Shown: positions 27,673 to 55,468 of the stretch, piece by piece | How positions within the stretch are numbered: position 1 is the stretch's first letter | Layout: the number at the start of each line of letters is the position of its first letter | NCBI GenBank assembly: GCA_964291405.2 | Contig: OZ219926.1 | Coordinates: 1-64,000 of the forward strand | Origin: Thermodesulfobacteriota bacterium | GTDB lineage: Bacteria; Desulfobacterota; Binatia; Bin18 | Length of the DNA: 64,000 nt | Direction: 5' to 3' | Program-made: the position numbers and the translations under genes | Notes under the pieces: generated by a model | The model's input: the letters and a program-made list of their open reading frames with translations, nothing else | What the model was told of the DNA's origin: nothing | Database searches by the model: none

Positions 27673-27773
27673 TCCCCTCTTGGGAGGGGTGCCGAAGGCG
27701 GGGTGGGTTTCCTCCAGTCGAATACGAGGCAGCACCCACCCCGGCGCTCCGCGCTACCCCTCCGAGGAGGGGA
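27673..27773. repeat. Inverted doublet of the CCCCTC..GAGGGG repeat
   Basis: TCCCCTCTTGGGAGGGGTGCCGAAGGCGGGGTGGG followed by an inverted copy. Confidence 0.8.
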
Positions 27774-27805
27774 TAGGATTTATGAAAGCTGGAGAACCTG
27801 AGCAT

Positions 27806-29393: not shown

Positions 29394-31490
29394 ATGTCTA
29401 CTCCTGCAAGCCTGCGCGTTGCCTTTGACATTGGCGGAACCTTCACCGATGTCGTCATAGCCGGTGCCGACAGCCAGCTTCTGACCTATAAAATCTTGAC
29501 CCTGCCTGATTCGGTTGGCGCGGACGTTGGACGCTGCATTGCCGATGCCGAACGCCAGCACCCGGAGAGCTCTATTGCGAGCCTCGTCCACGGCACGACC
29601 ATCGCTTCCAACGCGGTCCTGGAAGAACAGGGCGCACGGACCGGTCTGATCACCACCACAGGCTTTCGGGACGAATTGGAAATCCGCCGCCTGGGACGCC
29701 CCAGTGTCTACAACGTGTTTTGGCAGCGTACGCCGCCTTTGATCCCACGTCGTCGCCGACTTGAAGTCAGCGAACGCATGACCGTTCTGGGCGAGGTAGA
29801 AACGCCGCTCAACGACGAAGAGGTGCGTCAGGCCATACGCAGCCTCAAACGCCAGAGTGTCGAAGCCATTGCCGTGGCCTTTCTGCATTCCTACGTCAAT
29901 CCCAGCCATGAACAACAGACCGTAGCTCTTATCCGCGAGATATTCCCGGAAGTCATGGTTTGCTCCTCAGCCGACATCCTGCCCGAGGTTCGCGAGTACG
30001 AACGTACCTCCACCACGGCGCTGAACGCCTACCTCATGCCCGTGGTCGGACGCTATCTGGACCAGGTGGAGACGCAGCTCCGGGACTATCCTCCAGCCCT
30101 GCAAATCATGCAGTCCAACGGAGGGATCATGAGCGCCGCGCACGCCCGTCACCGCCCGGTGCATATGATTGAATCCGGTCCTGCAGCCGGTGCCCTGGCC
30201 GCGGCCGGCTTGGCGCGGGAAATCGGTCTGGCTCAGGCGGTCGCGTTTGATATGGGCGGGACAACCGCCAAAGGGTGCCTGATAGAAAATGGCCAGCCGG
30301 TTGAAACCGCCGAAGGCGAGGTCGGGGCGGGCATCAACCGAGCCGGGCGGCTGAGCAAGGGTGCCGGCTATGCGCTGCGCGTTCCCGCGTACGATATTGT
30401 CGAGGTCGGCGCAGGAGGAGGCAGCCTGGCCTGGGTAGACGATGGTGGCGCGCTGCGCGTCGGGCCCCGTAGCGCCGGTGCCGTCCCCGGACCGGCCTGC
30501 TATGGCCGGGGCGGAACCGAGCCGACCATCACCGACGCCAACGTGGTCCTGGGCTATATGAACCCGGACAGCATCGCCGGTGGGACCGTCCCCATTGATG
30601 CCACTGCCGCGCAGACCGCCATACAGGCACGATTAGGCGCACGTCTCGGTTTGTCGGTCCACGAGCTTGCCTTTGGGATTCATCAGGTAGCTGACGCGAC
30701 CATGACGCGCGCCATCCGTGCGGTCACGACCGAGCGGGGTCGTGATCCACGCGAGTTTACCCTGATAGCCTTCGGAGGGTCAGGCCCGCTGCACGCGGCG
30801 ACGCTGGCCGATAATCTGGGCATGTCGCGGGTGTATATTCCGTCTTTCCCTGGGGTGTTCAGCGCGCTGGGTCTGTTGGTGGCCGACCTGCGTTCTGACT
30901 ATGTGCAGAGTGTTCCGCAGGAGCTGGACACTGTTGATCCTACGGCTCTACTCCGGGAATTTGACGCGCTGGTGGCCCGTGCGGAGCAGGATGCTCACAA
31001 TGAGCAGCGTGAGCAGGATGGTCTCACCTATGAACGCCTGATCGATTTACGCTATCAGCGCCAGTCGTCGGAACTGACCCTTCGGGTTCCGGCTCAGGTT
31101 GAAGCCGCTGACATAAGGCAGGTGCTGGCCGAAAGCTTTCATGCCGCGCATGAACAAACGTATGGATATCGCCGTGAAGACGATACTATTGCCATCGTCA
31201 GCGTCCGCCTGAAGGCAACCGTCCGGACGCCTAGCCTGTCCTTCAGCGAATTGGGCGCGTATTTCAGGCAATCGGCAAAAAAGGCAACTCAGTTGGGCTC
31301 CCGACGCGCGTATTTCGGCCCGCAGCAGGGTGAACTCGATACCCGGATTCTCGGCCGAGGGGACCTGCTCGAACAGGTTGTCGCCGGTCCCCTGATTGTC
31401 GAAGAGTTTGACACCACGGTCGTAGTCCCTCCGCGCTGGCAGGCGAGTGTCGATGCGTATGGGAATATTGTCTTGCAGGTCGTGAAGTGA
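29394..31490 (+). CDS. Hydantoinase A/oxoprolinase family subunit (A2)
   Basis: DIGGTFTD, HGTTIASN, ESGPAAG and DMGGTT motifs. Confidence 0.95.
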   Translation: MSTPASLRVAFDIGGTFTDVVIAGADSQLLTYKILTLPDSVGADVGRCIADAERQHPESSIASLVHGTTIASNAVLEEQGARTGLITTTGFRDELEIRRLGRPSVYNVFWQRTPPLIPRRRRLEVSERMTVLGEVETPLNDEEVRQAIRSLKRQSVEAIAVAFLHSYVNPSHEQQTVALIREIFPEVMVCSSADILPEVREYERTSTTALNAYLMPVVGRYLDQVETQLRDYPPALQIMQSNGGIMSAAHARHRPVHMIESGPAAGALAAAGLAREIGLAQAVAFDMGGTTAKGCLIENGQPVETAEGEVGAGINRAGRLSKGAGYALRVPAYDIVEVGAGGGSLAWVDDGGALRVGPRSAGAVPGPACYGRGGTEPTITDANVVLGYMNPDSIAGGTVPIDATAAQTAIQARLGARLGLSVHELAFGIHQVADATMTRAIRAVTTERGRDPREFTLIAFGGSGPLHAATLADNLGMSRVYIPSFPGVFSALGLLVADLRSDYVQSVPQELDTVDPTALLREFDALVARAEQDAHNEQREQDGLTYERLIDLRYQRQSSELTLRVPAQVEAADIRQVLAESFHAAHEQTYGYRREDDTIAIVSVRLKATVRTPSLSFSELGAYFRQSAKKATQLGSRRAYFGPQQGELDTRILGRGDLLEQVVAGPLIVEEFDTTVVVPPRWQASVDAYGNIVLQVVK

Positions 31491-31819
31491 AATTACCCAA
31501 TCGACGCAACGCCTACATTCCCCAAGGGAAATTATCAAGATACCTACTCTCTCCTACGCACGCGGTTGGCAAAGCAAAGGCTAAGTTCTTTCAGGCGATT
31601 GGTTTTAGTGTAGCTAGAGAGGAAGACCTCAAGCAGCAACTCTTAACTATTGCCCGTACTAACGAGGTGACAAGTGTCTCGTGATCAACTCATGGGATAA
31701 AATACGTCATTGAAGAGACACTGGAAACAAAGGCAAAGAGGAAAGTCCGTATTCGTACTGTTTGGATCGTTGAAGGACAACGGGATAATCCTCGCTTTGT
31801 CACTGCCTACCCGTTATAG
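31487..31819 (+). pseudogene. DUF6883-like putative toxin with an in-frame TGA at 31682
   Basis: KLSRYLLSPTHAVGKAKAKFF continues in frame past the TGA as STHGIKYVIE...RTVWIVE...PRFVTAYPL*. Confidence 0.8.
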
Positions 31820-31841
31820 ATAAGAGAAAAGGAAGGAATCT

Positions 31842-32072
31842 ATGTTCCAAGAGCTTGATACGGTCGTTCTTACTCATAATGTTGAAAATTATGGGCTCAA
31901 GGAAGGCGATATCAGCGTCGTGGTGCATTGCTACCAGGATGGTCAAGGGCTTGAGGTTGAGTTTGTGACAGCGGAAGGGAAGACGATAGCACTATTAACG
32001 CTGACTCCATCCGACGTTCGCCTCATGCGAGAGCGAGAAATTTTGCACGTACGCGAACTTTCAGCCGCATAA
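31842..32072 (+). CDS. DUF4926 family protein (putative antitoxin)
   Basis: ELDTVVL..GLKEGD...VVH...EVEFV...GKT pattern, strong RBS. Confidence 0.85.
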   Translation: MFQELDTVVLTHNVENYGLKEGDISVVVHCYQDGQGLEVEFVTAEGKTIALLTLTPSDVRLMREREILHVRELSAA

Positions 32073-32096
32073 GAGGCAAGTGAAGGAAGAAGGTTC

Positions 32097-33842
32097 ATGG
32101 CAACTGCATTTGACCCCATTCTTATCGAAGTCATGAAAAACGAGCTGACCGCGGTTGCCGAAGAGATGGGCATTACCATGAAGCGGACGGCGCGCTCGCT
32201 GGGCGCCAAGGAGGGCTCTGATTTTTCTACTGCGCTGGTCGATGCCCAGGGCCGGTTGATCGCCCAGGGCCTGACCATCGGTGTCCACCTCGGCTACATC
32301 ATGGGAGTCATGCCGTGGGTGCTGAAGAAATTTGGCGACGACCTTCACTCCGGCGATGTGATTGTCTCAAACGACCCCTACGGTGGGGTGTCTCACTTCC
32401 CGGACATCGTTCTGATCATGCCGATTTTCTGGCAGGAACAACTGGTCGGCTTTGCGGCCATTGTGGAACACCATACCGATATTGGCGGGCGCTTCCCCGG
32501 CGGCATGGGCATCGCCAGTGCTGAGGTCTACGAAGAAGGGGTGTGTATTCCGGGGGTCAAGCTCTTTAGTCTAGGCGAGCTGAATCATGACTTAGTCGAT
32601 ATGATTGCCGCCAACGTCCGGGCACCTGAGGATGTGCGTGGCGACCTGGACGCTCAGGCCGCGGCCTGCCGGCGCGGTGCACAGGGAGTCCAGGAGTTGC
32701 TCGACCGCCACGGGCTGGAACAATTTGCGGCCTGCAACGAACAGTTGCGCCAGTACAGCGAACGGGCTATGCGGGCCTGCATTGCGGCCATTCCGGATGG
32801 CTCGTATACATGTACGGACCTGTTTGAAGATGACGGCTTGGGTGGGGAAGGGGTCAACTTGCGTCTTACGGTGACCGTTGCCGACGAGTCCGTTCGGGTG
32901 GACTTTGACGGCACCGGCCCACAGGTTCGTAGCGCGATCAACGTCCCCTTTAATCTCACCCGCGCCTGTGTGTACGTGGCCTTTCGGTCCATCCTTGAGA
33001 CGGATGCACCGGCAAACTCGGGTCTGATGGCTCCCATTCAGGTGACTGCTCCCGAGGGCTGTGTGGTCAATCCGCAATTTCCCGGCGCGGTCGGCGCGCG
33101 CGGGATGCTGATGTGGCGGATTATCGACATGATATTTGCCGCCCTGGCCCAGGCCATTCCCGACAAAGTCTATGCCGCGGGCGAGGGCGGGGCGAATTTG
33201 CTGGTGTATACGCCCCAGGTCGAGGCGGGCGTGCCGTCCATGCTGCTGGATATTTACACCTCGGGCTGGGGCGCGCGGCCCGATAGCGACGGTGTGGAAG
33301 GCGTCACTCCTATGGCTGCCGGCGGCGCCATGCGCAGCATTCCCGCGGAAATGATCGAGCGTGAATGTCCGGTTATGTTGGACGGATTCGGCTTTTTGCC
33401 GGACACCGGCGGCCCAGGGCAATATCGCGGAGCCCTGTCCGTGTATCGCAAATGGCGCTTTCTGGGCGATGGCCGGGTAATGCTCCGAACCTGTCGGGTC
33501 AAATCCGTCCCGTATGGGTTGGCCGGTGGAAAAGACGGCACCCCGTTTGCTGCCAGGCTGCGTTCCGGCGAAGCAGAAACCCAACTCCCACACGAAATGC
33601 TCATCGATACCGAGGTACGATCCGGAGAAACCCTGCTGCATGTCCAACCGGGTGCAGGTGGCTATGGCGACCCGCTCGCGCGTGACCCCCAGCTCGTCCT
33701 CGACGATGTGTTAGACGAGAAGATCTCGCCCGCGTACGCCGAGCGGGAATACGGGGTCGCCATTGACGAGAACACGGAGCAGGTTGACTGGAACCGGACG
33801 ACGCAACTTCGCGCGACATTGCGGTCTGACCTGGAGGCCTGA
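32097..33842 (+). CDS. Hydantoinase B/oxoprolinase family subunit (B2)
   Basis: NDPYGGVSHFPD, HHTDIGG and GGYGDP motifs. Confidence 0.94.
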   Translation: MATAFDPILIEVMKNELTAVAEEMGITMKRTARSLGAKEGSDFSTALVDAQGRLIAQGLTIGVHLGYIMGVMPWVLKKFGDDLHSGDVIVSNDPYGGVSHFPDIVLIMPIFWQEQLVGFAAIVEHHTDIGGRFPGGMGIASAEVYEEGVCIPGVKLFSLGELNHDLVDMIAANVRAPEDVRGDLDAQAAACRRGAQGVQELLDRHGLEQFAACNEQLRQYSERAMRACIAAIPDGSYTCTDLFEDDGLGGEGVNLRLTVTVADESVRVDFDGTGPQVRSAINVPFNLTRACVYVAFRSILETDAPANSGLMAPIQVTAPEGCVVNPQFPGAVGARGMLMWRIIDMIFAALAQAIPDKVYAAGEGGANLLVYTPQVEAGVPSMLLDIYTSGWGARPDSDGVEGVTPMAAGGAMRSIPAEMIERECPVMLDGFGFLPDTGGPGQYRGALSVYRKWRFLGDGRVMLRTCRVKSVPYGLAGGKDGTPFAARLRSGEAETQLPHEMLIDTEVRSGETLLHVQPGAGGYGDPLARDPQLVLDDVLDEKISPAYAEREYGVAIDENTEQVDWNRTTQLRATLRSDLEA

Positions 33843-33893
33843 CGGGAGACTGGACGGCCCGCCGCGTCAGACGCGTGGCCTGAGAGGAGAGCT

Positions 33894-35642
33894 ATGGCAT
33901 TTGATCCTATTCTGGTTGAGGTCGTGAAAAACGAGTTGGCCGCCATCACCGAAGAAATGGCGATTGCGGTGTGGAAAACCGGCCGCTCGGCTATGGTCAA
34001 AACCGGAGATTTTGCCACCGCTATCTGCGACGGCCAAGGCCGGTTAATCGGCCAGGGCTATGCGGCTCCGTTTCAACTGGCGTTCTTTATTGCGGTGATG
34101 CCCCACATCCTCAGAAAATACGGAGAAGACTTTGCGCCCGGCGATGTCATTGTGGTGAACGACCCGTATGCCGGTGTCACCCATATGCCGGACGTAATGA
34201 TCATTGCGCCCACGTTCTGGCAGGGGCAGCGGGTCGCCTTTACCTTAGCCTATTCGCACCACACCGATATTGGCGGGCGCTTTCCGGGCGGGTTCAGCAG
34301 CCAGTGTACGGAGACCTTTGAAGAAGGGCTCCGCCTGCCGCCGATCAAACTGTATAAAGGTGGGGAGCGCAACGAAGCCCTTCTGGAGACGATTCTGGCC
34401 AATGTTCGGGTATCCGACGAATGGCTGGGAGACGTGGAGGCGAAAATCGCGGGCTGCTGGCGCGGCGAGCAAGAACTGAAACGTCTACTCGAAAAATACG
34501 GCTTGGACACATTCAACTCGTGCTGTGACTATTTGATTGCCTATGCGGAAAAGGCCACCCGGGCGGCCATCAAGGAGATTCCTCCGGGCGAGTATGTGTA
34601 TGAGGATGCCTTTGAAGACGATGGTTTTGGCTCCGATGGTGTGGCCCTGCCGATCAAGGTGACCCTGCGCGCACAGGGCGAAACCTTGAGCGTTGACTTC
34701 ACCGGCACCAGCCCGCAGGCGCGCGGCGCGATCAACCTGCCGCTGAGCATGACGGAAGCGACGGTGTATGGCGCGGTCAAGAGTATTGTCAGCCCGGAGG
34801 TGTTAACCAATGTCGGCTTCATTCGGCCTATACAGGTCGTTGCGCCGGTCGGCACCCTGGTAAACCCGCGTTTTCCTGCCGCGGTCGGCGGCCGTGCCCC
34901 CTTATTCTTTCGGGTTTTTGATATGCTGTTCCGTGCCCTGGCTCAGGCATTGCCCGACCGGGTTCCCATCCCCGGAGAGGGTGGGGACGTGTTGCACTTC
35001 ACTGGTGAGAAGGAAGACGGGACACCGTTTGCGGTCATGGATATTTTCTTTGGTGGCTGGGGTGGACGTCCGCACAAGGACGGGATTGATGGCGTGGCGC
35101 CTATGGCCTTCGGGTCCTACGGAACGATTCCGGCGGAACTGCTCGAACGCGAATTTCCGCTGGTCGTTGACGGGTTTGGCTATGTGCCGGATACGGGCGG
35201 CGCCGGCAAGCATCGGGGCTCGGTGTCCATCTATAAACAGTGGCGCTTCCTGAGCCCCGGAAAAGTCATGGTTCGCACCAACCGTCTCATTCGGGCCTCC
35301 GGGGGGCTGGCCGGTGGCGCGCCCGGCTCGCTGTCCAAGAATATTCTGAACCCCGAAACAGAGAGCCGGGAACTGCCGCGCAAAGCCCATCTGCATATGG
35401 ATGTGAAACCGGGCGATCGTATCCACCACATCGTGTCCGGCTCGGGCGGCCACGGCAATCCCTTGGAGCGCGGTCCCGCCCAGGTGCTGGCCGACGTGCA
35501 GGACGAAAAGCTGTCTGTCGCGCAGGCGCGAGATCAGTATGGGGTGGTGATTGATGCGGCTGCGGCTGCGGCTGCGGTGAATATGCCGGAAACCGAGGCA
35601 CTGCGAGCCGCTCGCTTGCAACCAGTTGCGGCAGCAGACTAG
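33894..35642 (+). CDS. Hydantoinase B/oxoprolinase family subunit (B3)
   Basis: NDPYAGVTHMPD, HHTDIGG and GGHGNP motifs. Confidence 0.94.
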   Translation: MAFDPILVEVVKNELAAITEEMAIAVWKTGRSAMVKTGDFATAICDGQGRLIGQGYAAPFQLAFFIAVMPHILRKYGEDFAPGDVIVVNDPYAGVTHMPDVMIIAPTFWQGQRVAFTLAYSHHTDIGGRFPGGFSSQCTETFEEGLRLPPIKLYKGGERNEALLETILANVRVSDEWLGDVEAKIAGCWRGEQELKRLLEKYGLDTFNSCCDYLIAYAEKATRAAIKEIPPGEYVYEDAFEDDGFGSDGVALPIKVTLRAQGETLSVDFTGTSPQARGAINLPLSMTEATVYGAVKSIVSPEVLTNVGFIRPIQVVAPVGTLVNPRFPAAVGGRAPLFFRVFDMLFRALAQALPDRVPIPGEGGDVLHFTGEKEDGTPFAVMDIFFGGWGGRPHKDGIDGVAPMAFGSYGTIPAELLEREFPLVVDGFGYVPDTGGAGKHRGSVSIYKQWRFLSPGKVMVRTNRLIRASGGLAGGAPGSLSKNILNPETESRELPRKAHLHMDVKPGDRIHHIVSGSGGHGNPLERGPAQVLADVQDEKLSVAQARDQYGVVIDAAAAAAAVNMPETEALRAARLQPVAAAD

Positions 35643-35679
35643 TCGAGAGCTGGGCTGGCTGTCCTCTAAGAAGTCTTCC

Positions 35680-35790
35680 CTACTCGGACTGTCGTTCCTT
35701 CCGGCGTAATCCACTGTCCAGGAAGAAAATAAGAAAGCCTATGGCAGCAATGCCTAACATCACGAGAAAGACGATGCCTAATGGGTTCAT
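35680..35790 (-). CDS. 36-aa single-TM peptide (MNPLGIVFLVMLGIAAIGFLIFFLDSGLRRKERQSE), absent from the ORF track
   Basis: ATG overlaps the upstream stop (ATGA), GGAGG lies just upstream, and a hydrophobic helix is followed by a basic tail. Confidence 0.6.
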   Translation of the reverse strand: MNPLGIVFLVMLGIAAIGFLIFFLDSGLRRKERQSE

Positions 35791-35993
35791 GAAGAGACCT
35801 CCATTCCATCAAATAAATAGCCGAGAAGCGCAAATGCGAAGGTTGCAAGTACCCCAAGGCCAATAACCCAGGGCTGGACAATCTCTGGCTTGGTGATTGG
35901 TCCAAGAACGAGGGCTGCCAGAGCAATCTTGGCGGCATCCCAAAAGAATTTCGCCATGTTATCTTTTTGCTTCTCGTTGCGAAGAATCCCCAT
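35787..35993 (-). CDS. Small two-TM membrane protein (DUF6722-like)
   Basis: KQKDNMAKFFWDAAKIALAALVLG...ALLGYLF; AT-richer than the flanks. Confidence 0.65.
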   Translation of the reverse strand: MGILRNEKQKDNMAKFFWDAAKIALAALVLGPITKPEIVQPWVIGLGVLATFAFALLGYLFDGMEVSS

Positions 35994-36073
35994 TTTTCGT
36001 CCCGTCGTCTTCAACAGAGCTATGCTCACCATACACCGTTTGGATAGACGATTCGATATGGTATAGGCTCCCC

Positions 36074-38119
36074 ATGCGTATAGGCTTTGATATTGGCGGA
36101 ACCTTCACCGACGTTATTGTAGTTGGCGACGACGGACGCCTGTTCACCACAAAGGTGCTCTCGCTGCTCGATCGGGTGGGCGAAGATATCGTCCGCTGCG
36201 TGCATGAGGTCGATGCGCAGGCCCAGGTCGAGGGCTTCGTCCACGGTACGACCATTGCCTCGAACGCCGTCATCGAAGAGACCACCGCGCGGACCGGACT
36301 GATCACCACCCAGGGCTTTCGGGACGAGCTCGAAATGCGCGGGCAGCGACGGCCCAATATCTATGATGCGGACTGGGACCGCCTGCCTCCTCTCGTGCCC
36401 CGTTCCCTGCGTTTGGAAGTCCAGGAGCGCATCCTGGGTAACGGCCATATTGAGCGCCCGCTCGATCCGACGCAAGCCCGAGTGGTGATCGACCAGCTTC
36501 TGGCCGCCGGAGTGGAAACGATTGCCGTTTGCCTGGTGAATTCCTATCTCAACCCTACGCACGAACGGCAGTTGGGACAGCTTATCGCTGAGGTAGCTCC
36601 GGATATGGTGGTGTGTCTATCGTGCGATATCCACCCCGAGATTCGCGAGTACGAACGCACCAGTACGACTGTCATTAACGCCTCGCTGATTCCGGTCGTT
36701 GATCGCTATCTCAGCCGACTGGAACGACACCTTTCGACCTATAGCGAGCGCGTTCTGATTATGCAGTCCAACGGCGGTATCATGAGTGCCCAGGCCGCCC
36801 GGCGCCGGCCCGCGTATATGATTGAGTCGGGCCCAGCTGCCGGCGTGCTGGCTGCGGCGCGCTTCGCCCATGAGACGCAGCAGGATCAGGTGCTCGCGTT
36901 TGACATGGGGGGGACGACCGCCAAAGCCTGTTTGATCGAAAACGGCGTGCCACTTGAGAAGCCGGGCGGGGAGATCGGAGGTGGCGCCACTATGACCACG
37001 CGTTTATTTGGCGGCGGTGGACATGCCCTGCGCGTCCCCTCGCTCGATATCGTGGAAGTGGGCGCTGGAGGCGGTAGTATTGCCTGGATAGATGACGGGG
37101 GCGCGTTACGGGTCGGTCCCCAGAGCGCAAGCGCGGACCCTGGCCCGGCCTGTTATGGCCGGGGCGGAACCGAGCCTACGGTAACTGATGCCAATGTGGT
37201 GCTGGGCTACATGAACCCTGAGGCTATCGCTGGTGCAACCTTGGCTATCGACTGCCAGGCCGCCTGGACTGCGGTTGAGCAAAAAATCGCTCAACCGCTC
37301 AATGTGGAAGTCCTGGCTGCAGCCTATGGTATCACCCAGGTGGCAAACGCGACCATGATGCGCGCCCTGCGGGCCGTTTCGACCGAACGTGGGCGAGACC
37401 CGCGTGACTTTACCCTGATCGCATTCGGCGGAGCCGGGCCGATGCACGCCGCCGCCCTGGCGGACAGCCTGAGTATGACGCGAGTTCAGATTCCGCTCTA
37501 CCCAGGCTTATTCAGCGCGTTTGGACTCCTCTTGGCGGACTATCGCCACGACTATATCCGTAGCGTGGCTGTGGCCTTGGACCAGCTCGACCCGCAGGCC
37601 GTGCTGCGTCACTACCAGGAGCTTGAGACCCAGGCGCGGGCCGAGTTGGCCGCAGAAGGCATTGCCGCGGATCAGATTCGTTTTGAGCGTCAGGTCGATC
37701 TCAAGTACGGCTATCAGGTCGCGGAGCTGAGCCTGCCTTTTCCCGACGTATCAGTCGCGGACATGCAGGACCGCCTGGCCCAACTCTTCACCGAAGCGCA
37801 CCGCCAGGCGTTTGGCTATGATCGAGCCGATACGATTGAGCTTGTCAGCGTCCGGCTGCGAGCCATAGCCTCCTCCGGCCCTCTACGCCTGACCGAGTTG
37901 ACTGGAACCGGGAACACCCCTACGTCTCCGGCCTCCCGCACGGCGTATTTCGGTCCCCAGGTAGGCGAATGCCAGGCCGCGGTATATCAGCGAACCGCTC
38001 TTGAACAGGCGCGGAGCGGGCCGCTCATTGTAGAAGAACCGGATACCACGGTGGTTGTACCGCCCGGCTGGACAGTCCAGTATGACGTAAGCGGGAATCT
38101 GCTCTTGCAGCATGAATAA
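36074..38119 (+). CDS. Hydantoinase A/oxoprolinase family subunit (A3)
   Basis: MRIGFDIGGTFTD and ESGPAAG motifs; close paralog of A2. Confidence 0.95.
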   Translation: MRIGFDIGGTFTDVIVVGDDGRLFTTKVLSLLDRVGEDIVRCVHEVDAQAQVEGFVHGTTIASNAVIEETTARTGLITTQGFRDELEMRGQRRPNIYDADWDRLPPLVPRSLRLEVQERILGNGHIERPLDPTQARVVIDQLLAAGVETIAVCLVNSYLNPTHERQLGQLIAEVAPDMVVCLSCDIHPEIREYERTSTTVINASLIPVVDRYLSRLERHLSTYSERVLIMQSNGGIMSAQAARRRPAYMIESGPAAGVLAAARFAHETQQDQVLAFDMGGTTAKACLIENGVPLEKPGGEIGGGATMTTRLFGGGGHALRVPSLDIVEVGAGGGSIAWIDDGGALRVGPQSASADPGPACYGRGGTEPTVTDANVVLGYMNPEAIAGATLAIDCQAAWTAVEQKIAQPLNVEVLAAAYGITQVANATMMRALRAVSTERGRDPRDFTLIAFGGAGPMHAAALADSLSMTRVQIPLYPGLFSAFGLLLADYRHDYIRSVAVALDQLDPQAVLRHYQELETQARAELAAEGIAADQIRFERQVDLKYGYQVAELSLPFPDVSVADMQDRLAQLFTEAHRQAFGYDRADTIELVSVRLRAIASSGPLRLTELTGTGNTPTSPASRTAYFGPQVGECQAAVYQRTALEQARSGPLIVEEPDTTVVVPPGWTVQYDVSGNLLLQHE

Positions 38120-38148
38120 CGTCCGGTCGTTTTTTGCTTCAGAACGAG

Positions 38149-38299
38149 AACCCACCCCGCCGCTGTACGGCACAAAGAGGAAACGTGTCCTTCAACAGAA
38201 CAGGTAGATGTCGACACGTTTCCTCTTTCCCTCCCAAGAGGGGATGGGAGAAGCACAAAATCCCCTCCTCGGAGGGGTGGCCGAAGGCCGGGGTGGGTT
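38149..38299. repeat. CCCCTC..GAGGGG doublet with a 55-bp hairpin insert (38174-38228)
   Basis: Perfect 16-bp IR AAAGAGGAAACGTGTC/GACACGTTTCCTCTTT; second copy at ~51061-51117. Confidence 0.8.
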
Positions 38300-38324: not shown

Positions 38325-40592
38325 GTGAGGCCGACATCCACTCCGGTAGTCAAAGATTTGGTCCTGATTGGCGGTGGCCACAGTCATGTCACTGTGCTGA
38401 AACGCTTCGGCATGAAGCCGTTGCCGGGTGTACGCGTGACGCTGATTTGCCGCGATACGCACGCGCCGTATTCCGGCATGTTACCCGGCTATATTGCCGG
38501 GCATTATACCTTCGATCAGGCCCATATCGATCTTGGACCGCTGTCCCGGTTCGCTGGAGCACGATTTTTTCACGATGAAGTGATCGACCTGGACCTGACC
38601 AACAAGCAGGTTGTGTGTCGCACCCGGCCGCCCGTGGCCTATGATGCCTTGTCCATTAATATCGGGGCCACGCCCGCTGTCGCACATATACCCGGTGCCG
38701 GGCACACCGGTGTGGCCGTCAAGCCCATAGACGGTTTTTGGCGGCATTGGGAACAGCTCCGCGAGCGCTGTCTGGCCCGGACCGCACGCACGACAATCGG
38801 CGTTATCGGCGGTGGAGCCGGGAGCGTGGAACTCTTGCTGGCCGTCCAATATCGCCTCGAACGCCTGCTCGCCCAGCAAAACCGGTCGGCCGACCATCTC
38901 GTTTTCTACCTCATCAGCGGGACACAAGAGATTCTGCCGACCCACAACCCACGCGTCCGGGCCGCGTTTCGGCGTATTCTTAAGCAGCGTGGTGTCGAGG
39001 TCCGAACGGATTGTCTCGTCACCGGCGCTGCCGAAGGTTGTGTGCGTTTTGCCGATGGCACCCAACTCGCTCTGGACGAGATGCTGTGGGTCACCACGGC
39101 CGGTGCCGCTGGCTGGCCGGGAGAGGCCGGCCTGGCCACAGACGAGCAGGGTTTTATCGCAGTGCAGGACACGCTCCAGTCCGTTTCCCATCCCGAGGTC
39201 TTTGCCGCCGGAGATATTGCCGCGGTCGTCAACCATCCCCGCCCAAAATCCGGCGTGTTCGCCGTACGCCAGGGCCCGCCGTTGGCGAAGAATCTCCGCC
39301 GTTTCCTGCGAGGCCAAACGGTCAAAGCTTTTGCGCCGCAAAAACAGTTTCTGAGCCTGATCTCTACCGGAGACCAATATGCGGTGGCCTCACGGTCGCG
39401 CTGGGCGTGTGAGGGGAGATGGGTCTGGAAGTGGAAAGACTGGATCGACCGGCGCTTTATCCGCAAATACAATGAGCTACCGGATATGCCCGACGACGAG
39501 CCAGCCCAGGTAGAGCAGGGACTGGCCGATGCGCACGTCCTCAAAGAGATTTCCGCCTTTGCCATGCGGTGCGGCGGCTGTGGGTCCAAGATCGGCAGTA
39601 CCGTCCTGAACCAGGCTCTAGCGCGCCTTGAGCCGGTTGACCGCTCTGATGTCATTGTCGGCCTGCACGCGCCGGACGATGCGGCAGTGGTCACCGTCCC
39701 GCCCGGAAAAGCGATGGTGCAGACCGTTGATTTTTTCCGGGCCTTTATTGAAGACCCGTTTGTCTTCGGCCAAATCGCGGCCACCCACGCCCTGGGTGAT
39801 ATCTTTGCCATGGGCGCGGAGCCACAGACCGCCCTGGCCATGGTCACCATCCCGTACGGTTTGGAACACAAGGTGCAGGACCAACTCACCCAGCTCATGG
39901 CCGGGGCCTTGGAGGTCCTCAACCGGGAACATACGGCTCTGGTTGGCGGGCATACCAGTGAGGGCAGCGAACTGGCGCTTGGATTTGCCATCAACGGTCT
40001 GGCAAGTCAGGAGGCCGTGCTGAAAAAAAGCGGTATGCAACCGGGACAAGCCCTGATTCTGACCAAGGCGCTGGGAACCGGCGCGCTGTTTGCCGCAGAC
40101 ATGCGACACCAAGCCAAAGGCCGCTGGATCGAAGCCGCGCTCGTCTCCATGCGACAGTCAAATCGGGCCGGAGCAGACTGCCTGCGTCAGTACGGCGCAA
40201 CCGCCATGACCGACGTGACCGGATTCGGCCTGCTGGGCCATCTGGTCGAAATGGTCCGGGCCTCGGCCGTTGACGCGGTTCTCAATATGGAACGGCTGCC
40301 GATCCTGCCCGGTGCTCTGGAGGTCGTTCTGCAGGGTATTTTTTCGTCCCTACAACCGCAGAATATTCGGCTGCGGCGAGCCATTCGCGAGGTGGAGCGG
40401 GCGACCCAACACCCGTACTACGCTCTGCTGTTCGACCCGCAGACCGCCGGCGGACTCCTGGCCAGCATCCCGGCCGAGCAGGCCCGGGCGTGTATCCGGG
40501 AGCTTCAGGTTCTCGGCTATCAGGACGCGGCTATTATCGGCACGGTGCAGGCGCAGGGTGATGCGCTTGAGCCGATTACGCTGCAAGTATAA
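38325..40592 (+). CDS. selD: Selenide, water dikinase fused to an N-terminal NADH dehydrogenase-like flavoprotein domain
   Basis: GGGHSH, YSGMLPG and FAAGD (Ndh-like); [31 protein letters not shown] and DPQTAGGLL (SelD). Confidence 0.95.
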
Positions 40593-40758
40593 GCCTTCAA
40601 GCAAGAGTTGTTAGGTGGGCTGAATATGTGTAGCCTGCGTCCAAAAGTACTGTTCAAGACTTCCATCGTTTCGAGACGGGATGAGGAAGCTTTCAGGTAT
40701 CCGATAGCAATACCGAGTAGCTGCCGACGGTGCAGATACAAGGCAATACGTCGATCTT

Positions 40759-42099
40759 ATGGAACAGATTAGGATAAAAAACTTTCGCTGCTTCCGCGAA
40801 GAGCAGACCGCACGCCTGGCACCCCTGACCCTGCTCATGGGAGAGAACAGCACCGGCAAAACCTCGTTCATGGCGCTGATCCGGGCGCTGTGGGATGTCT
40901 TCTACCGGTCCAGAGTTCCTGATTTTAAGGAAGAGCCGTATGACCTGGGCAGCTTCGATGAAATCGCCCATCATCGGGGAGGACGAGGGGGCCGTGCGGA
41001 TGCTTTTAAGGCGGGCTTTGACCTCGCTCTTGAAGATCGGGAGGGAGCAAGGGATGAACATGGCCACTTCGAGATAACTTTCGAAAAGAAAGGGACCGTG
41101 CCGGTTCCGGTGAGAAGATACCTTGCCTATAAAGATGTCTGGGTTGAAGAGCGACTCGAAGACTCACCTTATAACATTGGCTTCGGGATATCGAAGCGTG
41201 TCTGGAAACAGGAACTCACCAATATCGGGCGTATTCTTGCTGACACCGACGACGATACTCTGCTTCCCTTTTCTTCTCTTCTGCAGCGTTTACAATTGTT
41301 CTCCCAAGATTCCGACTCGCCCGGCTCACCTACCAATGAAGAGTGGAAACGAATCGAAAGACTTGCTGATCGTCTTAGATGGACGCTCTCCCGCCGTAGT
41401 TTCAACATCGGACCCTATGCCAGTGCTCCGGTCCGCTCCAAACCGCATCGAACCTATGACCCTGCACGCCCGACACGAGACCCCGTAGGCGACTACATTC
41501 CCATGTATCTCGCCAACATACATTTTCAAAACAAGGCAGAATGGAACGCTCTCAAAGACGCGCTCGAAGAATTTGGGAAAGAGGCTGGTCTGTTCGATGA
41601 AATCTCGATCAAACAGCTAGGGAAGAATGAAAGTGAGCCATTTCAGATCCAGGTCAGAAAATTCGGAAGCAAATCCAAGGGACCGCATCGCAATCTGATC
41701 GATGTCGGTTACGGTGTCAGCCAAGCACTGCCAGTCATCACCGAACTGCTGCGCCGCGACGCTCCGCCGATATTTCTGTTGCAGCAACCGGAAGTGCATC
41801 TCCACCCCAGTGCCCAGGCGGCCCTCGGAAGCCTATTCTGCCAGATCGCTGGACAAAAGCGGCAGCTCATAGTCGAAACGCACAGTGACCACCTGCTCGA
41901 TCGGGTGCGTATGGACGTGCGCGACGACAAGACGAAATTAAAGCCTGAAGACGTTTCCATCTTGTACTTTGAGCGTGACGATCTGGATGTTCGCATTCAT
42001 TCACTGCGATTTGATGAACAGGGAAACGTCTTGGACGCTCCGCCGAGCTACCGGCAGTTCTTCATGGAAGAGATGCGAAGGTCTTTATGGAAGAGATGA
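40759..42099 (+). CDS. ABC/AAA_21-type ATPase with DUF3696-like C-terminus
   Basis: IKNFRCF, Walker A GENSTGKT, signature VGYGVSQ, LLQQPEVHLHP and ETHS. Confidence 0.9.
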   Translation: MEQIRIKNFRCFREEQTARLAPLTLLMGENSTGKTSFMALIRALWDVFYRSRVPDFKEEPYDLGSFDEIAHHRGGRGGRADAFKAGFDLALEDREGARDEHGHFEITFEKKGTVPVPVRRYLAYKDVWVEERLEDSPYNIGFGISKRVWKQELTNIGRILADTDDDTLLPFSSLLQRLQLFSQDSDSPGSPTNEEWKRIERLADRLRWTLSRRSFNIGPYASAPVRSKPHRTYDPARPTRDPVGDYIPMYLANIHFQNKAEWNALKDALEEFGKEAGLFDEISIKQLGKNESEPFQIQVRKFGSKSKGPHRNLIDVGYGVSQALPVITELLRRDAPPIFLLQQPEVHLHPSAQAALGSLFCQIAGQKRQLIVETHSDHLLDRVRMDVRDDKTKLKPEDVSILYFERDDLDVRIHSLRFDEQGNVLDAPPSYRQFFMEEMRRSLWKR

Positions 42100-42119
42100 A
42101 GTTTACAGGGGGCTGAATA

Positions 42120-42611
42120 ATGTGTGCAATTGTTGACGCCAACGTAGCTCACGAGGTGTTCGGAGACAGCCCGCCGCCTGCAGCAGAGAAATTCTTTGAG
42201 TGGCTCGAAAGGGGAAGTCGCCGGCTGGTTGTTGGTGGCAAGTTGCTCAAGGAGCTTGAAGATACTTCGCCAGACTTCAGACGCTGGGGGCCGACGGCCC
42301 AACTTTCTGGAAAAATGATAACCGTGGATGAAAGAGAAGTTGAGGCGAAAACACAGCAAATCGAACGTGAGGGTGTAATCAAGTCAGATGACCCTCATGT
42401 TCTTGCCTTGGCCCAAGTCAGTGGAGCCCGGCTATTATATTCTAACGACCAAGACCTCAGCGACGATTTCAGAGATAGAAGGTTCATCGATAGACCGCAA
42501 GGGAAAGTTTATACAACACGCAGAGATAGAAATGCTCCTCCAGCGCAGGATAATACGAGATTCCGTTCTACCCATCGGGAGTTGTTAAAAAGGAATGTCT
42601 GCCCAATCTGA
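42120..42611 (+). CDS. PIN-like domain protein
   Basis: IVDANV, SDDPHVLALA and LYSNDQDL acidic triad pattern. Confidence 0.7.
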   Translation: MCAIVDANVAHEVFGDSPPPAAEKFFEWLERGSRRLVVGGKLLKELEDTSPDFRRWGPTAQLSGKMITVDEREVEAKTQQIEREGVIKSDDPHVLALAQVSGARLLYSNDQDLSDDFRDRRFIDRPQGKVYTTRRDRNAPPAQDNTRFRSTHRELLKRNVCPI

Positions 42612-42666
42612 TTGATTTCAGTCCAACTCGCCCTGCATCTGTAAATCCTAAGTCAAGGCTTCAAAC

Positions 42667-42839
42667 ACGCTCTGCTGTTCGACCCGCAGACCGCCGGCGG
42701 ACTTTTGGCCAGCATCCCAGCCGAGCAGGCCCAGGCGTGTATCCGGGAGCTTCAGACTCTCGACTATCAGGACGCGGCCCTTATCGGCACCGTACAAGCG
42801 CAGAGCGATGCGCTTGAGCCGATTACGCTGCAAGTATAA
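42667..42839 (+). repeat. Diverged direct repeat of the last 173 bp of selD (40420-40592)
   Basis: Colinear, same length, and ends in the same GCTGCAAGTATAA including the stop codon. Confidence 0.95.
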
Positions 42840-42890
42840 CCGCCTGTGTTACAATCCGGTCGGACCTGACAAATCACTGGAGGTGTCTGT

Positions 42891-43709
42891 ATGCTTCACG
42901 GTCTCTCGGCGATATTTTTATATTCAGCGCTATCGATATCTTTCGTTTTTGAGGGTGGTAGTACGGAAAAGATGGGAACAGGATTCTTTATCAAGAATGA
43001 ATCCAACTCCTTTTTTGTTACAAATAGGCATGTAATTAGTTGTGGAGAGAAATTGGGGAAAATTCAGCGTATTATCATTGAAGGCAAATCTGGCAGTGGA
43101 GAACCACAGTACAAGGATGACTTTGTTTTTGACGCCCATGAGTGGAACGTAGAATTCCCCGAAAATAACGATGACGACATTGCTGTTCTGTATGGAGTTA
43201 GTGGTCGGCAAGAAGGGCAGCCAGTTCTCATTGACAGGGAAATGCTTGTTACCGAGTCATACTTTGAAGATGAAGGCAACCTAGGCGTGTATGATTATGT
43301 CGCGGTACCTGGGTTTCATCCAGGGTACGATCCTACTACTAATCGACCTCTCTTTCGCGGCGGTAACATATCTAGCGATCCAAGGTACGGTCACTCTTTG
43401 CGCATCAAAACCAGATTCGATAATTGCGAGGAGAACTTCGAGAGCAAGTACTATAAAAACCTAGTTGTCTATGAGACTTTTTCCTATCCCGGATCGTCAG
43501 GAAGTCCGGTGTTTGCACTCCAGAAAGGTATAAAGCCAGGTAAAGGGCTATCTTTTCCCGCATATAGGCCAACGAAACTAATAGGCATTCAGTCTGTGAT
43601 GAGATCTACAAATCTAGGAAAACAGACAGGCTTACACCATAGTGGCCTTTCCTATTTCTTCAAATCCTCCGCAATCCTTGAAATCCTTGACTCAATTCCA
43701 AAGAGATAG
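42891..43709 (+). CDS. Trypsin-like serine protease, no clear signal peptide
   Basis: GTGFF, TNRHV, DIAVL and PGSSGSPV triad; low GC. Confidence 0.88.
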   Translation: MLHGLSAIFLYSALSISFVFEGGSTEKMGTGFFIKNESNSFFVTNRHVISCGEKLGKIQRIIIEGKSGSGEPQYKDDFVFDAHEWNVEFPENNDDDIAVLYGVSGRQEGQPVLIDREMLVTESYFEDEGNLGVYDYVAVPGFHPGYDPTTNRPLFRGGNISSDPRYGHSLRIKTRFDNCEENFESKYYKNLVVYETFSYPGSSGSPVFALQKGIKPGKGLSFPAYRPTKLIGIQSVMRSTNLGKQTGLHHSGLSYFFKSSAILEILDSIPKR

Positions 43710-43734
43710 TGCACGTAAGGGTAGGGCTGTCTTC

Positions 43735-43857
43735 TCACCGCTCCAATGCCGTCACAATCTCCCTAAAACGAGCAAGCCCGGACTCCAGGTTTTCAATGAT
43801 TTCGGTTGCCAGTTCATCGGGCTCAGGCAGATTATCGAAGTCGGCCAGACTTTTCCT
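43735..43857 (-). pseudogene. 3' remnant of a type I restriction-modification methyltransferase (HsdM)
   Basis: KSLADFDNLPEPDELATEIIENLESGLARFREIVTAL resembles the helical tail of HsdM proteins. Confidence 0.7.
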
Positions 43858-44606
43858 TATCGGACGTAGCGTCTGGATCGAGTACTGTTTGGAATGCGGG
43901 GCTGAAGTGCTCGCTGATTCCATATCCGCAAGGCGGAGATACACTTCTCACACTTGCAAGACCATGGATCGTGAAAGGACACTGTCATGATGATGCGATC
44001 CCAGATGAGAAACGCCCAGTAATGCCATTTACCAAAGGCCGCCTCTAAAACGCGAAAACGATAGTCAAAGATACCAGGATATCGGCCGTGCGTTTCATCA
44101 TTAGGAAGTTCTTTCATAGCTAGAAAATGGTCTGGGGGCTGCTCCGTTGGAGAAGTCTCGGTGCATTTGAGTTCGATATCTTCCGGTAGAATAGTGCTGT
44201 GATGGTGGAAATACAGGCCGCGTACGATTTTCCACGCTACTCGCGCTACACGGGTACCATCTTGACGCATTATGACGCGACCTGCTGGGAGATGTAGGCC
44301 GCTGGGCCGGGTTTCAAATTGGCGAAGTATTTTCTTCGCTAATTTCCGTTTCTTCGTACCCTTCCGAGAGTTCTCGAAAAATTGTTTGTATATGGCGTCT
44401 CCTGCCTCTGAGCCTAGTGCAAACGGAACCGTCGTTGCTATGAAATACTCCTCATCAGACGAGTAGAACGCGTTACAGTCTTTGTGAACCGGAATGGTGA
44501 TCAACTGGCTGAGGTTGTGTCGCTTCCTGATTTCTCGGGCGAACAGCGCCCGTGGCGGACAATGGTCATCACTATTATCTGGACGTGACAATGGATGGCC
44601 ACACAA
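43857..44606 (-). CDS. HNH-like Zn-binding hypothetical protein (start uncertain)
   Basis: The frame extends upstream to CYLCG; DHCPPRALF and PVHKDCN resemble an HNH core. Confidence 0.6.
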   Translation of the reverse strand: MCGHPLSRPDNSDDHCPPRALFAREIRKRHNLSQLITIPVHKDCNAFYSSDEEYFIATTVPFALGSEAGDAIYKQFFENSRKGTKKRKLAKKILRQFETRPSGLHLPAGRVIMRQDGTRVARVAWKIVRGLYFHHHSTILPEDIELKCTETSPTEQPPDHFLAMKELPNDETHGRYPGIFDYRFRVLEAAFGKWHYWAFLIWDRIIMTVSFHDPWSCKCEKCISALRIWNQRALQPRIPNSTRSRRYVR

Positions 44607-44698
44607 ATAGCAGAGTGTGGGATCCTTTTGACGGATTGATTCTTTCAGTCTGTTACCTCTTCTGCGCTCTTCGATGGTGTTGACTTGGCAGGCTCTAC

Positions 44699-44741
44699 AT
44701 CCCCTCTTGGGAGGGGTGCCGCGTCAGCGGCGGGGTGGGTT
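44699..44741. repeat. CCCCTC..GAGGGG-family repeat at the right edge of the accessory island
   Basis: ATCCCCTCTTGGGAGGGGTGCCGCGTCAGCGGCGGGGTGGGTT. Confidence 0.8.
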
Positions 44742-44750
44742 GTCCCCTAT

Positions 44751-46787: not shown

Positions 46788-48764
46788 ATGCCCATGAACA
46801 AAAACATACTGCTCGTGATTTTTGCTCTCCTGTTGATTGTGGGGCCGGCCGCCATTGCCCACGCACAATCGGCCACCTATCGGGTGACCTTTGAGGGCAA
46901 ATGGACCACCAGTGTCACCCCTGGCGGAGTACCCGGCGGGGCACATTTCACGACGTTGATCGGTGCCGTGCATAACGACCAGGTCACCTTCTGGCGCAAT
47001 GGGGGCACGGCCAGTGCGGGGATCGAGAGTATGGCGGAGATTGGAGGTACGAGCACTCTCAAGGCCGAAATCAACGCCAGCTCGCACGCGCTCAGCGTTA
47101 TTGAGCGGGGGGGTAATATCGGTGAGACCGCCACCGCCACGGTCAATATCACAGTCACTCCCGATCATCCCCTGGTCACCCTAGTCTCAATGGTGGCTCC
47201 GAGTCCGGACTGGTTCGTGGGTGTCTCCGGCCTGTCATTGCGTGAAAGCAACAACTGGCTGGCGTCGAAGACGGTGGACCTGTTTCCGTACGATGCGGGC
47301 ACCGAGGACGGCACGGAGTTCTCGCTGAGCAACCCCGCCACCGATCCACGGGGGACGATCACCAGCATTAAGGGAACGGGCAAGTTCTCGAACGAGCCGA
47401 TTGCCACACTCACCTTCACCCTTCAGACAACGCCACCTCCGCCACCACCACCACCTCCGCCGCCCCCGCCGCCCCCGCCGCCGCCGAGCACAGGCGGCGG
47501 CGGGGGGAGCAGTCGGGACGACCACGGCAACACACCCGCGCGGGCAACCGCAGTCTCCCTCGATGAGACCGCGCCCTGGAGTTCGTCGACTGCCGGACAG
47601 ATCAACACTAGGCGCGATGTGGATTATTTCACTCTCACCACTCTATATGCCGGGGTGCTAGTCGTCGGGACCATCGGCTCGACCGATACCAAGGGCACGG
47701 TCTGGCAAGATGGTGAAGAACTGGCCATGGCAGACAGTGGAGGCGTGCGGCAGAACTTTCGGCTGCATGTCCGCGTAGAGGCCGGACCGGTGGTGATCGC
47801 CGTGACAGGCAATGGCCGCCGGACCGGGTCCTATACCTTACAGACCACCCTGCTGGCGGGCTATCTGGAGAACCCTGGGCCGGGGTCCTTTCAGAGTGGG
47901 ATTGGGGTGCTGTCAGGCTGGGTGTGTGACGCCGGGGAGATTGAGATCGAAATTGGAGACTCCGAACGACAGGTGGCAGCATATGGCACCGAGCGGGTGG
48001 ACACGGAAGAGACCTGTGGCGATACGAACAACGGCTTTGGGCTGTTATTCAACTGGAACCGGCTGGACGACGGGGAATATACGGTCGTGGCGCGGGTGAA
48101 TGGCGTCGAGTTGGGGAGAGTCACCGTGGATGGGATTGAGTTAGGTCAAGCCACGGTGACCGTGACGACTTTGGGCACAGAGTTCTTAAAGGACGTAGCG
48201 GGCGAGTGTATGGTGGAGAACTTCCCGATGGACGGAGAGATGGTCCGGCTGGTGTGGCAGCAGACGAACCAGAACTTCATGATAGCGGGTGAGAGTGCGC
48301 CGAGTGGGGAGAATTGGGCGGGGATGCCAGGTATCGGGTATCTGGAGAACCCCGGCCCCAATTCCTTTCAGAGTGGTCTTGGGGTGATCTCGGGCTGGGT
48401 CTGTGAGGCCGAGACGGTCGAGATCGAGCTGGGGAACCTCGGGCGACAGGTGGCGGCGTATGGAACCGAGCGGGTGGACACGGAAGCAACCTGTGGCGAT
48501 ACGGACAATGGCTTTGGGTTGTTGTTCAACTGGAACCGGTTGGGGACTGGGGAACACACGGTTGTGGCTTGGGTGGATGAGGTGGAATTGGGCCGGGCTA
48601 CGGTGCTGGTGACTACACTGGGGGAAGGGGTGGAGGAAGAGTTTCTGCGGGAGGCTGAGGGGGAATGTGTGATAGAGGAGTTCCCGACTGCTGGGGAAAT
48701 GGTCACGCTGGAGTGGCAGCAAGGGCTGCAAAATTTTGTGATTATCTCGTACGACTCTGAATAG
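46788..48764 (+). CDS. Secreted spondin_N domain protein with poly-Pro/Gly linker, PPC-like domain and two tandem C-terminal repeat domains
   Basis: Signal peptide (AHA|Q), ATYRVTF, SMVAPSPDWFVG, YDAGTEDG, an 18-Pro run and 2x GYLENPGPxSFQSG..SGWVC. Confidence 0.9.
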   Translation: MPMNKNILLVIFALLLIVGPAAIAHAQSATYRVTFEGKWTTSVTPGGVPGGAHFTTLIGAVHNDQVTFWRNGGTASAGIESMAEIGGTSTLKAEINASSHALSVIERGGNIGETATATVNITVTPDHPLVTLVSMVAPSPDWFVGVSGLSLRESNNWLASKTVDLFPYDAGTEDGTEFSLSNPATDPRGTITSIKGTGKFSNEPIATLTFTLQTTPPPPPPPPPPPPPPPPPPSTGGGGGSSRDDHGNTPARATAVSLDETAPWSSSTAGQINTRRDVDYFTLTTLYAGVLVVGTIGSTDTKGTVWQDGEELAMADSGGVRQNFRLHVRVEAGPVVIAVTGNGRRTGSYTLQTTLLAGYLENPGPGSFQSGIGVLSGWVCDAGEIEIEIGDSERQVAAYGTERVDTEETCGDTNNGFGLLFNWNRLDDGEYTVVARVNGVELGRVTVDGIELGQATVTVTTLGTEFLKDVAGECMVENFPMDGEMVRLVWQQTNQNFMIAGESAPSGENWAGMPGIGYLENPGPNSFQSGLGVISGWVCEAETVEIELGNLGRQVAAYGTERVDTEATCGDTDNGFGLLFNWNRLGTGEHTVVAWVDEVELGRATVLVTTLGEGVEEEFLREAEGECVIEEFPTAGEMVTLEWQQGLQNFVIISYDSE

Positions 48765-52753: not shown

Positions 52754-52844
52754 AACCCACCCCGGCCCTACGGGCCACCCCTCCAAGGAGGGGAGCGGCA
52801 TTCATCTCCTCTTGGGAGGGGTGCTGCGAAGCAGCGGGGTGGGT
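52754..52844. repeat. Inverted doublet of the CCCCTC..GAGGGG repeat
   Basis: AACCCACCCCGGCCCTACGGGCCACCCCTCC... followed by an inverted copy. Confidence 0.8.
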
Positions 52845-55342: not shown

Positions 55343-55434
55343 AACCCACCCCGGCCCTACGGGCCACCCCTCCCAAGAAGGGAGCTTTTTTATCTCCTCC
55401 TTGGAGGGGTGCCGCGCTAGCGGCGGGGTGGGTC
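55343..55434. repeat. Inverted doublet of the CCCCTC..GAGGGG repeat (intact reference copy)
   Basis: Near-identical to 52754-52844; contains the unsplit GCCGCGCTAGCGGC. Confidence 0.8.
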
Positions 55435-55468
55435 TCTTTGTCTCAAGGCACAAGCAGGGAGAGGTCTG

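Follow-up and report, generated by a model that had tools for sequence, protein, structure and literature searches.

The window (i.e., the whole 64,000-nucleotide stretch of DNA analysed here) carries a pair of genes that probably serves in defence by abortive infection and that shares the design of HEC-03 but belongs to a separate subfamily; in this module an ABC ATPase would restrain a PIN-domain RNase until infection. Both open reading frames are on the forward strand, that of the ATPase at 40759–42099 (446 aa) and that of the PIN protein at 42120–42611 (163 aa), and are separated by the 20 nt that an earlier note on this sequence had given. The note had read the pair as a soluble ABC-ATPase sensor with a PIN effector, and this reading is supported, as are the fold class of the proteins, the strict linkage of their genes and the association of the family with defence loci.

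In the mechanism that we propose, the ABC ATPase would oligomerise and bind ATP, and the ATP-bound oligomer would hold the PIN RNase via a C-terminal DUF3696-like tail (a contact that we modelled in a homologous pair, from which restraint is a presumed consequence). A phage product or some other infection signal may then act on the ATPase, by which the PIN protein would be freed or activated; it would cut host RNA, presumably tRNA or rRNA if it resembles VapC and AriB, and translation would halt. The PARIS system, as described in PMC12409363, offers a precedent both for restraint and release and for RNA cleavage that stops translation. The pair would probably have an anti-phage effect.

Pfam and PADLOC matches, predicted fold and substitution pattern all mark the first gene product as a soluble ABC ATPase of the OLD/DUF3696 type, the putative sensor and restraining subunit. 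Its Pfam matches to AAA_15 (E 5e-23) and AAA_21 (E 2e-17) are well above cut-off, and that to DUF3696 (PF12476; 20.9 bits) is slightly below the cut-off of 22. The structural model matches SMC/Rad50 heads, but is of such low confidence (pTM 0.57, with pLDDT below 50 in the P-loop region) that its fold ranking cannot tell ABC families apart. Each of the motifs recognised in the earlier note is present: a Walker A (GENSTGKT, residues 28–35), a signature-like motif (GYGVSQ, residues 317–322), an H-loop (ETHS, residues 373–376) and a variant Walker B (LLQQPE, residues 340–345; 41776–41793), in which both acidic positions are Gln. Because QQPE recurs in 120 of the 120 closest ATPase proteins, and in all 82 of the ATPase reading frames with a readable motif from 79 loci and the window, the Walker B of the window is no local mutation. 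The gene has a dN/dS of 0.18 relative to its relative in locus L002. A 67% identical ATPase paralog (P0145) was also noticed, and may represent a second copy in the same genome.

The partner is a PIN-domain, VapC-like putative RNase and the putative effector, an assignment based on its Pfam match (25.1 bits, cut-off 23.6), fold searches, conservation and dN/dS (0.13–0.18 versus relatives). Its acidic residues are D6, E45, D91 and D110, plus D116; the D...DD...D pattern reported previously was confirmed, but had overlooked E45. Among 121 diverse homologues, drawn at the 50% cluster level, these acids are present in 121 (D6), 120 (E45), 121 (D91), 117 (D110, with Glu in three more) and 120 (D116), and the RNase site looks intact at the level of sequence. 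H93 is present in all 121, and cysteines near each end of the protein are almost invariant (C2, 42123–42125, in 120 of 121; C161, 42600–42602, in 119 of 121), making a disulfide or a metal site possible. With the AlphaFold2 model of the protein (mean pLDDT 69), VapC-family structures top both fold searches, which supports the PIN fold that the earlier note had proposed: VIA aligned 119–132 residues with VapC folds at Z 8.2–8.4 and an rmsd of 3.2–4.0 Å, and Foldseek returned no match at E ≤0.001, its best being at E 1.2e-3. A search of PDB sequences with the PIN profile yielded nothing significant (best match a VapC, E 0.17). Only two longer homologues occurred among 8000 candidates, and neither was recognised as a fusion of the PIN domain to another effector.

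The family is large, and its two genes are inseparable in the loci that we analysed. At 90% clustering, 2051 of 2106 candidates were PIN relatives, and at 50% clustering there were 1871. A GTDB scan with the PIN protein (one genome per species), which sampled the closer PIN relatives, confirmed 476 of 511 stretches, and the best 80 of these 476, chosen by PIN only, form the loci considered below. An ATPase homologue is directly upstream of the PIN gene in 79 of the 79 loci with enough upstream DNA, such that the linkage, whose loss would have spoken against a functional pair, is conserved; the 80th locus (L001) ends inside the ATPase gene. The commonest gap between the two genes is 3 nt (37 of 77 loci). 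In three of the 79 loci (L010, L053 and L054) the ATPase is frameshifted beside an intact PIN match, which is unexpected if the free PIN protein is toxic, unless these are assembly errors. Sequence identities of ATPases and PINs are correlated (Mantel r 0.62), but we do not take this as co-evolution, because linked genes share their history. Hosts span 12 phyla (six of the 80 loci come without a phylum), and among those named are Ca. Synechococcus spongiarum and Ca. Entotheonella, lineages of sponge symbionts, although the record titles state no source. We found no description of this clade in the literature, although the supplements to published work may list it; the ABC-ATPase classification of Krishnan et al. 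2020 would be the likeliest place.

The earlier note could not match an ABC ATPase with a PIN protein to any named system, but such a system exists, and we rejected the view that the combination is new and unnamed: HEC-03 (Payne et al. 2024, preprint, 10.1101/2024.01.29.577857) has the same architecture and is described in the preprint as an Hma-embedded ABC ATPase with a VapC-like PIN. According to that source, the two HEC-03 genes cloned together gave E. coli protection against phages and lowered plaquing, neither gene could be spared, and induction appeared to be toxic; whether the ATPase acts through ATP binding or hydrolysis is a question that the preprint leaves open. (In PADLOC 2.0 the labels are swapped relative to the preprint, HEC-03A being the PIN model of 159 positions and HEC-03B the ATPase model of 458.)

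The resemblance to HEC-03 extends to the two adjacent genes, an ABC ATPase and a VapC-like PIN, and, for the family, to occurrence inside Hma systems. Our HEC-03-type reference consists of plasmid loci that match the profiles (L081–L083) and two that were grouped with them by tblastn (L087 and L088); those that match the profiles share the gene order of the window (ATPase, then PIN) and its DUF3696-type ATPase. Similarity of the proteins is, however, remote. The best PADLOC match of the window ATPase is NsnB (165 bits, E 7e-49, profile positions 2–330 of 345), followed by the HEC-03 ATPase model PDLC04148 (106.8 bits, best stretch 257–439), on which L081 reaches 445 bits over its full length; a DUF3696 ATPase with an unrelated partner (L086) also attains 107.7 bits. 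The window PIN has no match to the HEC-03 PIN profile PDLC04147 at E 0.1, and matches were obtained for none of its 87 close homologues and for only two of the 121 diverse ones (best E 0.03), in contrast to the 84–95 bits of the PINs of L081–L083. The PADLOC comparison foreseen in the earlier note therefore returned the HEC-03 ATPase (107 bits), but neither at the score of a member nor with a PIN match.

Direct comparison indicates that both partners are remote homologues of the HEC-03-type proteins, the ATPases being 24% identical over 480 columns (E 1e-29) and the PIN profiles aligning over 108 columns with their acids in register (E 4.5e-4, probability 33%). The Walker B motif is QQPE throughout the window's subfamily and, where it could be read, EQPE or EEPE in HEC-03-type loci. 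An ATPase tree of 21 rows (LG+G4) sets apart the QQPE clade (100/100), Menshen (100/99) and the HEC-03-type ATPases (88/89) without resolving the branching order at its base, and it does not reject a joint clade of QQPE and HEC-03 ATPases (AU p 0.146); a quick 36-row version of the tree carried long-branch warnings. A further difference is a gene annotated as RNA ligase family directly after the PIN gene in four of the five HEC-03-type plasmid loci (L081:4289–4990, L082:4297–4989, L087:4001–4693 and L088:4082–4681), which goes unmentioned in the available part of the HEC-03 account and whose product could repair or modify PIN-cut RNA; none was found among 55 downstream reading frames scanned at QQPE loci. 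From these comparisons, the pair is most likely of HEC-03 design and a subfamily apart.

The fixed QQ motif bears on how such a pair would operate. Nucleotides control the nucleases of Septu and Gabija, and it is conceivable, if somewhat unlikely in our estimation, that the pair has the same defence role but that its ATPase is a hydrolysis-dead nucleotide sensor, whose ATP-bound dimers hold the PIN until infection lowers the level of ATP or NTP, with no phage protein as the trigger of release. In every member read, both Walker B acids are Gln while the Walker A, signature and H-loop are conserved, and an E-to-Q substitution in Rad50 stops hydrolysis and keeps binding (as cited in PMC12673091). 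The same source reports that retron-Eco7 PtuA loses its ATPase activity with D395A and its defence with E396Q; as these are the changes equivalent to the QQ motif, the window ATPase would be expected to hydrolyse ATP slowly or not at all. The PtuA effects count against our main reading, in that a QQ Walker B could mean another mode of action. On the other hand, Gln or Asn in place of the second-position Glu is common to HEC-03-type and Menshen ATPases, leaving only the first position as special; the invariant E345 could supply a catalytic base; and the large variable insert of the ATPase looks like a sensor surface, as our preferred reading, release by an infection signal, would have it.

The contact that this release would undo was modelled in a natural homologous pair, that of L068, whose ATPase is 56% and PIN 49% identical to those of the window. 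Folded as two ATPases with one PIN, in line with the multimer modelling that the earlier note had in mind, the PIN docks on the C-terminal tail of the ATPase with a complex score of 0.71, against 0.45 for the best of three controls; the mark used was reached by 116 of 157 solved pairs and two of 215 mismatched pairs, but the job is unlike this calibration set, and likeness to solved ATPase–nuclease complexes may raise its score. With an unrelated protein as its partner, the PIN still reached 0.45. Contacts agree to at least 98% between runs, and the partner pLDDT is at least 82. In window numbering, the interface joins the ATPase tail (residues ~420–443) and helix 377–384 to PIN residues ~26–33 and 54–70, and those tail positions that take part are fully or almost fully conserved. 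This DUF3696-like tail (42016–42087) is the predicted PIN-binding site, and its G422, N423, P428, Y431, F434, F435, E438 and S442 are invariant in 92 sequences. The confident interface excludes the catalytic acids of the PIN, and inhibition by binding is therefore left unexplained by the model.

A similar arrangement occurs in Menshen. Its NsnB, which the window ATPase matches best in PADLOC and over nearly the full length, likewise has a degenerate Walker B: EN in PMC12065111, and ENPE or DSPE in the Menshen loci where we could read the motif. In the published account, DUF3696 tails grip an inactive PIN, and the tail-to-PIN mode of our model is the one proposed there for NsnB–NsnC; in both systems, then, a DUF3696 tail is predicted to grip a PIN-fold domain. 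However, NsnC is described there as a fusion of a separate nuclease with a PIN that is itself inactive, whereas the window PIN is a single domain with its catalytic acids. NsnA (ParB/DUF262) was not detected among 70 co-oriented upstream reading frames, the long ones being searched by their last 520 aa (10 of the 80 loci have no such frame), and the gene upstream of the window pair is selD. We therefore rejected membership in Menshen, given the absence of NsnA and a PIN that is single-domain with an intact active site.

PARIS (AriAB), Septu and retron-PtuAB resemble the pair in that a soluble ABC ATPase controls a separate nuclease, but their effectors are TOPRIM or HNH proteins instead of a PIN, and the similarity of their ATPases to that of the window is weak and at the level of motifs. 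With PDC-M55, an untested PADLOC candidate that goes unmentioned in the main text of the Payne et al. preprint, the window ATPase has a partial match (PDC-M55A, 105 bits), and the PIN matches no PDC-M55 profile. Pairs of an OLD-ABC and a PIN are mentioned beside BREX systems in PMC12839542, as are PINs near Dnd ABC-ATPases in PMC10853773.

The PIN fold and four-acid active site are shared with VapBC, and this likeness to a VapC toxin is one reason to consider that the genes are a selfish toxin–antitoxin (addiction) pair without any real anti-phage effect, which spreads among co-living bacteria and for which Hma islands are a genomic sink. Copies are for the most part solitary and at unrelated positions in the chromosome, the family is found across 12 phyla, and two diverged QQPE ATPase–PIN pairs lie in tandem inside one Hma system in each of two loci (L062:6509–10468 and L075:6512–10468), all as might be anticipated of such an element. 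We nevertheless judge it quite improbable. Where VapBC has the small DNA-binding antitoxin VapB upstream, 79 of 79 loci have an ATPase, and a 446-aa ABC ATPase is no VapB-type antitoxin; PIN homologues at E 0.01 are absent from 72,556 plasmids and 50,697 phages; and the systems that come closest in architecture, HEC-03 and Menshen, have been tested as defence systems. The PIN differs from VapC also in its near-invariant terminal cysteines and in an extra C-terminal helix.

The commonest neighbouring families of the pair are a methylase, an ATPase and an SNF2 helicase, whose representatives match HmaB, HmaC and HmaA, along with HEC-01A/B. The association with defence loci that the earlier note had proposed to test was thereby supported: in 11 of the 80 loci (a raw count) the pair is situated between hmaB and hmaC, the same position in which HEC-03 was discovered, and in five more it is with one of these. 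A 3' remnant of hmaB lies upstream in six of the 65 loci without an hmaB gene, compared with none of 320 control windows. Counting against our main reading, some 59 of the 80 loci are, like the window, free of both Hma genes and hmaB remnants, and are mostly among metabolic genes. The alternative that the host island is a Gao-type DUF499/DUF1156 restriction-like system was rejected, as the HmaA, HmaB and HmaC profiles score far higher and the representatives are far under the cut-offs of the NCBIfam antiphage DUF1156/DUF499 models. Two other pairs came to light: an Hma-embedded DUF3696 ATPase (EQPE) with a PIN at L004:2861–4746, a further unnamed subfamily whose PIN is distantly related (27 bits) and matches no PADLOC profile, and a similar ATPase with a PIN-like partner behind a DNA methylase in L091.

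The window copy is itself outside any Hma system, but the spacer before it retains a collapsed DUF4276/HEC-01B gene (40593–40701, forward strand) in two pieces: one of 25 codons, 60% identical to the DUF4276 reading frames of L016, L026 and L028 (E 0.001 over 8376 reading frames), and one matching the C-terminus of the same three. Since a DUF4276/HEC-01B gene directly precedes the pair in L016, L020, L026 and L028, these pieces imply that the window copy descends from an Hma island. (A 15-nt likeness of 40617 to the start of the PIN gene falls inside this fossil and was rejected as a PIN remnant.) Such fossils of Hma-island DNA upstream of orphan copies, the window's included, and the recurrent hmaB–hmaC position are what would be expected were the pair a backup guard of Hma, as PrrC is for its restriction enzyme, that works only with HmaABC and is an inert passenger elsewhere. 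But orphans are the majority, they are mostly intact and under purifying selection (dN/dS 0.13–0.18), and HEC-03 acted as a cloned pair; we consider dependence on Hma very improbable.

How the window copy left its island is suggested by its surroundings. Upstream is an intact host gene, an oxidoreductase–SelD (selenide, water dikinase) fusion (38325–40592, forward strand; TIGR00476, 305 bits, and TIGR03169, 491 bits, both above cut-off), and the insertion begins immediately past its stop codon, with a GC content of 51.5% compared with 61.7% in the preceding gene. The earlier note had described a repeat-bounded cassette, and the direct repeats are real (173 nt, 92% identical, both on the forward strand), but the left copy (40420–40592) is the 3' end of selD and the right copy (42667–42839) is a second selD 3' end, in frame to its stop. 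The pair is indeed the only cargo between them insofar as co-oriented reading frames of at least 80 aa in gene frames are concerned; short overlapping frames are also present. Locus L001, 91–94% identical to the window over the region at the nucleotide level, matches it up to 42661, lacks 42662–44733 and with it the right repeat copy, and resumes at 44734, with 5 nt of microhomology at the junction. Because the repeat is coding selD sequence and its right copy is missing in L001, it represents the scar of an insertion rather than a conserved boundary of the cassette. For the same reasons, and since inspection by eye of the 46 reading frames of at least 250 aa in the window revealed no integrase or transposase, we rejected the repeat as an end of a self-mobile element.

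The two selD copies differ at eight synonymous and six non-synonymous sites (dN/dS 0.24, Fisher p 0.01), and their dS (0.21) is similar to that between the window and L001 (0.16); the right copy probably came from the selD allele of another strain. On the simplest reading, the selD regions of two strains recombined and left both ends, such that the window copy would have departed from an Hma/HEC-01 island and been placed behind selD by recombination with the DNA of a related strain. Bounding repeats occur at five of 79 cassettes (the window included) and 13 of 3786 control intervals (binomial p 0.0002, or 0.003 with two related loci counted once), and are an occasional scar, not a component of the system.

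The DNA missing from L001 (42662–44733) is a second low-GC insert (47.7% for 42840–44733). It includes a trypsin-like serine protease (42891–43709, forward strand; Pfam Trypsin_2, and PADLOC PDC-S45 at E 3e-13) and, on the reverse strand (43857–44606), a 249-aa reading frame with hypothetical or HNH-like proteins as its neighbours in the Atlas. Defence cargo may thus tend to insert at the 3' end of selD, which would make this site a hot spot. A palindromic repeat of REP- or MITE-like character is dispersed through intergenic DNA, at 38146–38299, 44692–44744, ~27673–27778, 52754–52827 and 55372–55440, and also in L001. Elsewhere, the window encodes a secreted-looking 658-aa protein in which a eukaryote-like Spondin_N domain is combined with a poly-proline linker and, at the C-terminus, a module present in duplicate (46788–48764), several clustered paralogs of hydantoinase/oxoprolinase A and B (17887–21764 and 29394–38119) and, near its end, a large 964-aa reading frame on the reverse strand (61049–63943).

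The architecture was already known and the kind of system is not new; what is distinct is the subfamily, by its PIN profile, its ATPase clade and its QQ Walker B. A broader scheme, which we regard as speculative and on balance unlikely, is that the QQPE clade is a hydrolysis-dead ABC pseudo-ATPase that, gated by ATP, serves as the antitoxin of an active PIN RNase, and retains the two-gene state from which Menshen could have arisen, through inactivation of the PIN to an adaptor and addition of a nuclease and a DUF262 sensor. The clade would then have escaped the PADLOC 2.0 profiles while spreading over at least 12 phyla, which apparently live in a single habitat associated with hosts, and redox or metal control may come in addition from its pair of terminal cysteines.

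To HEC-03, a tested but mechanistically unstudied system, the present analysis adds a large subfamily that would go undetected with the PADLOC 2.0 profiles. The predicted contact of tail and PIN joins HEC-03-type pairs and Menshen in one structural scheme, and the fixed QQ Walker B amounts to a natural ATP-trap mutation, which allows a direct test of whether it is the binding or the hydrolysis of ATP that drives these sensors.
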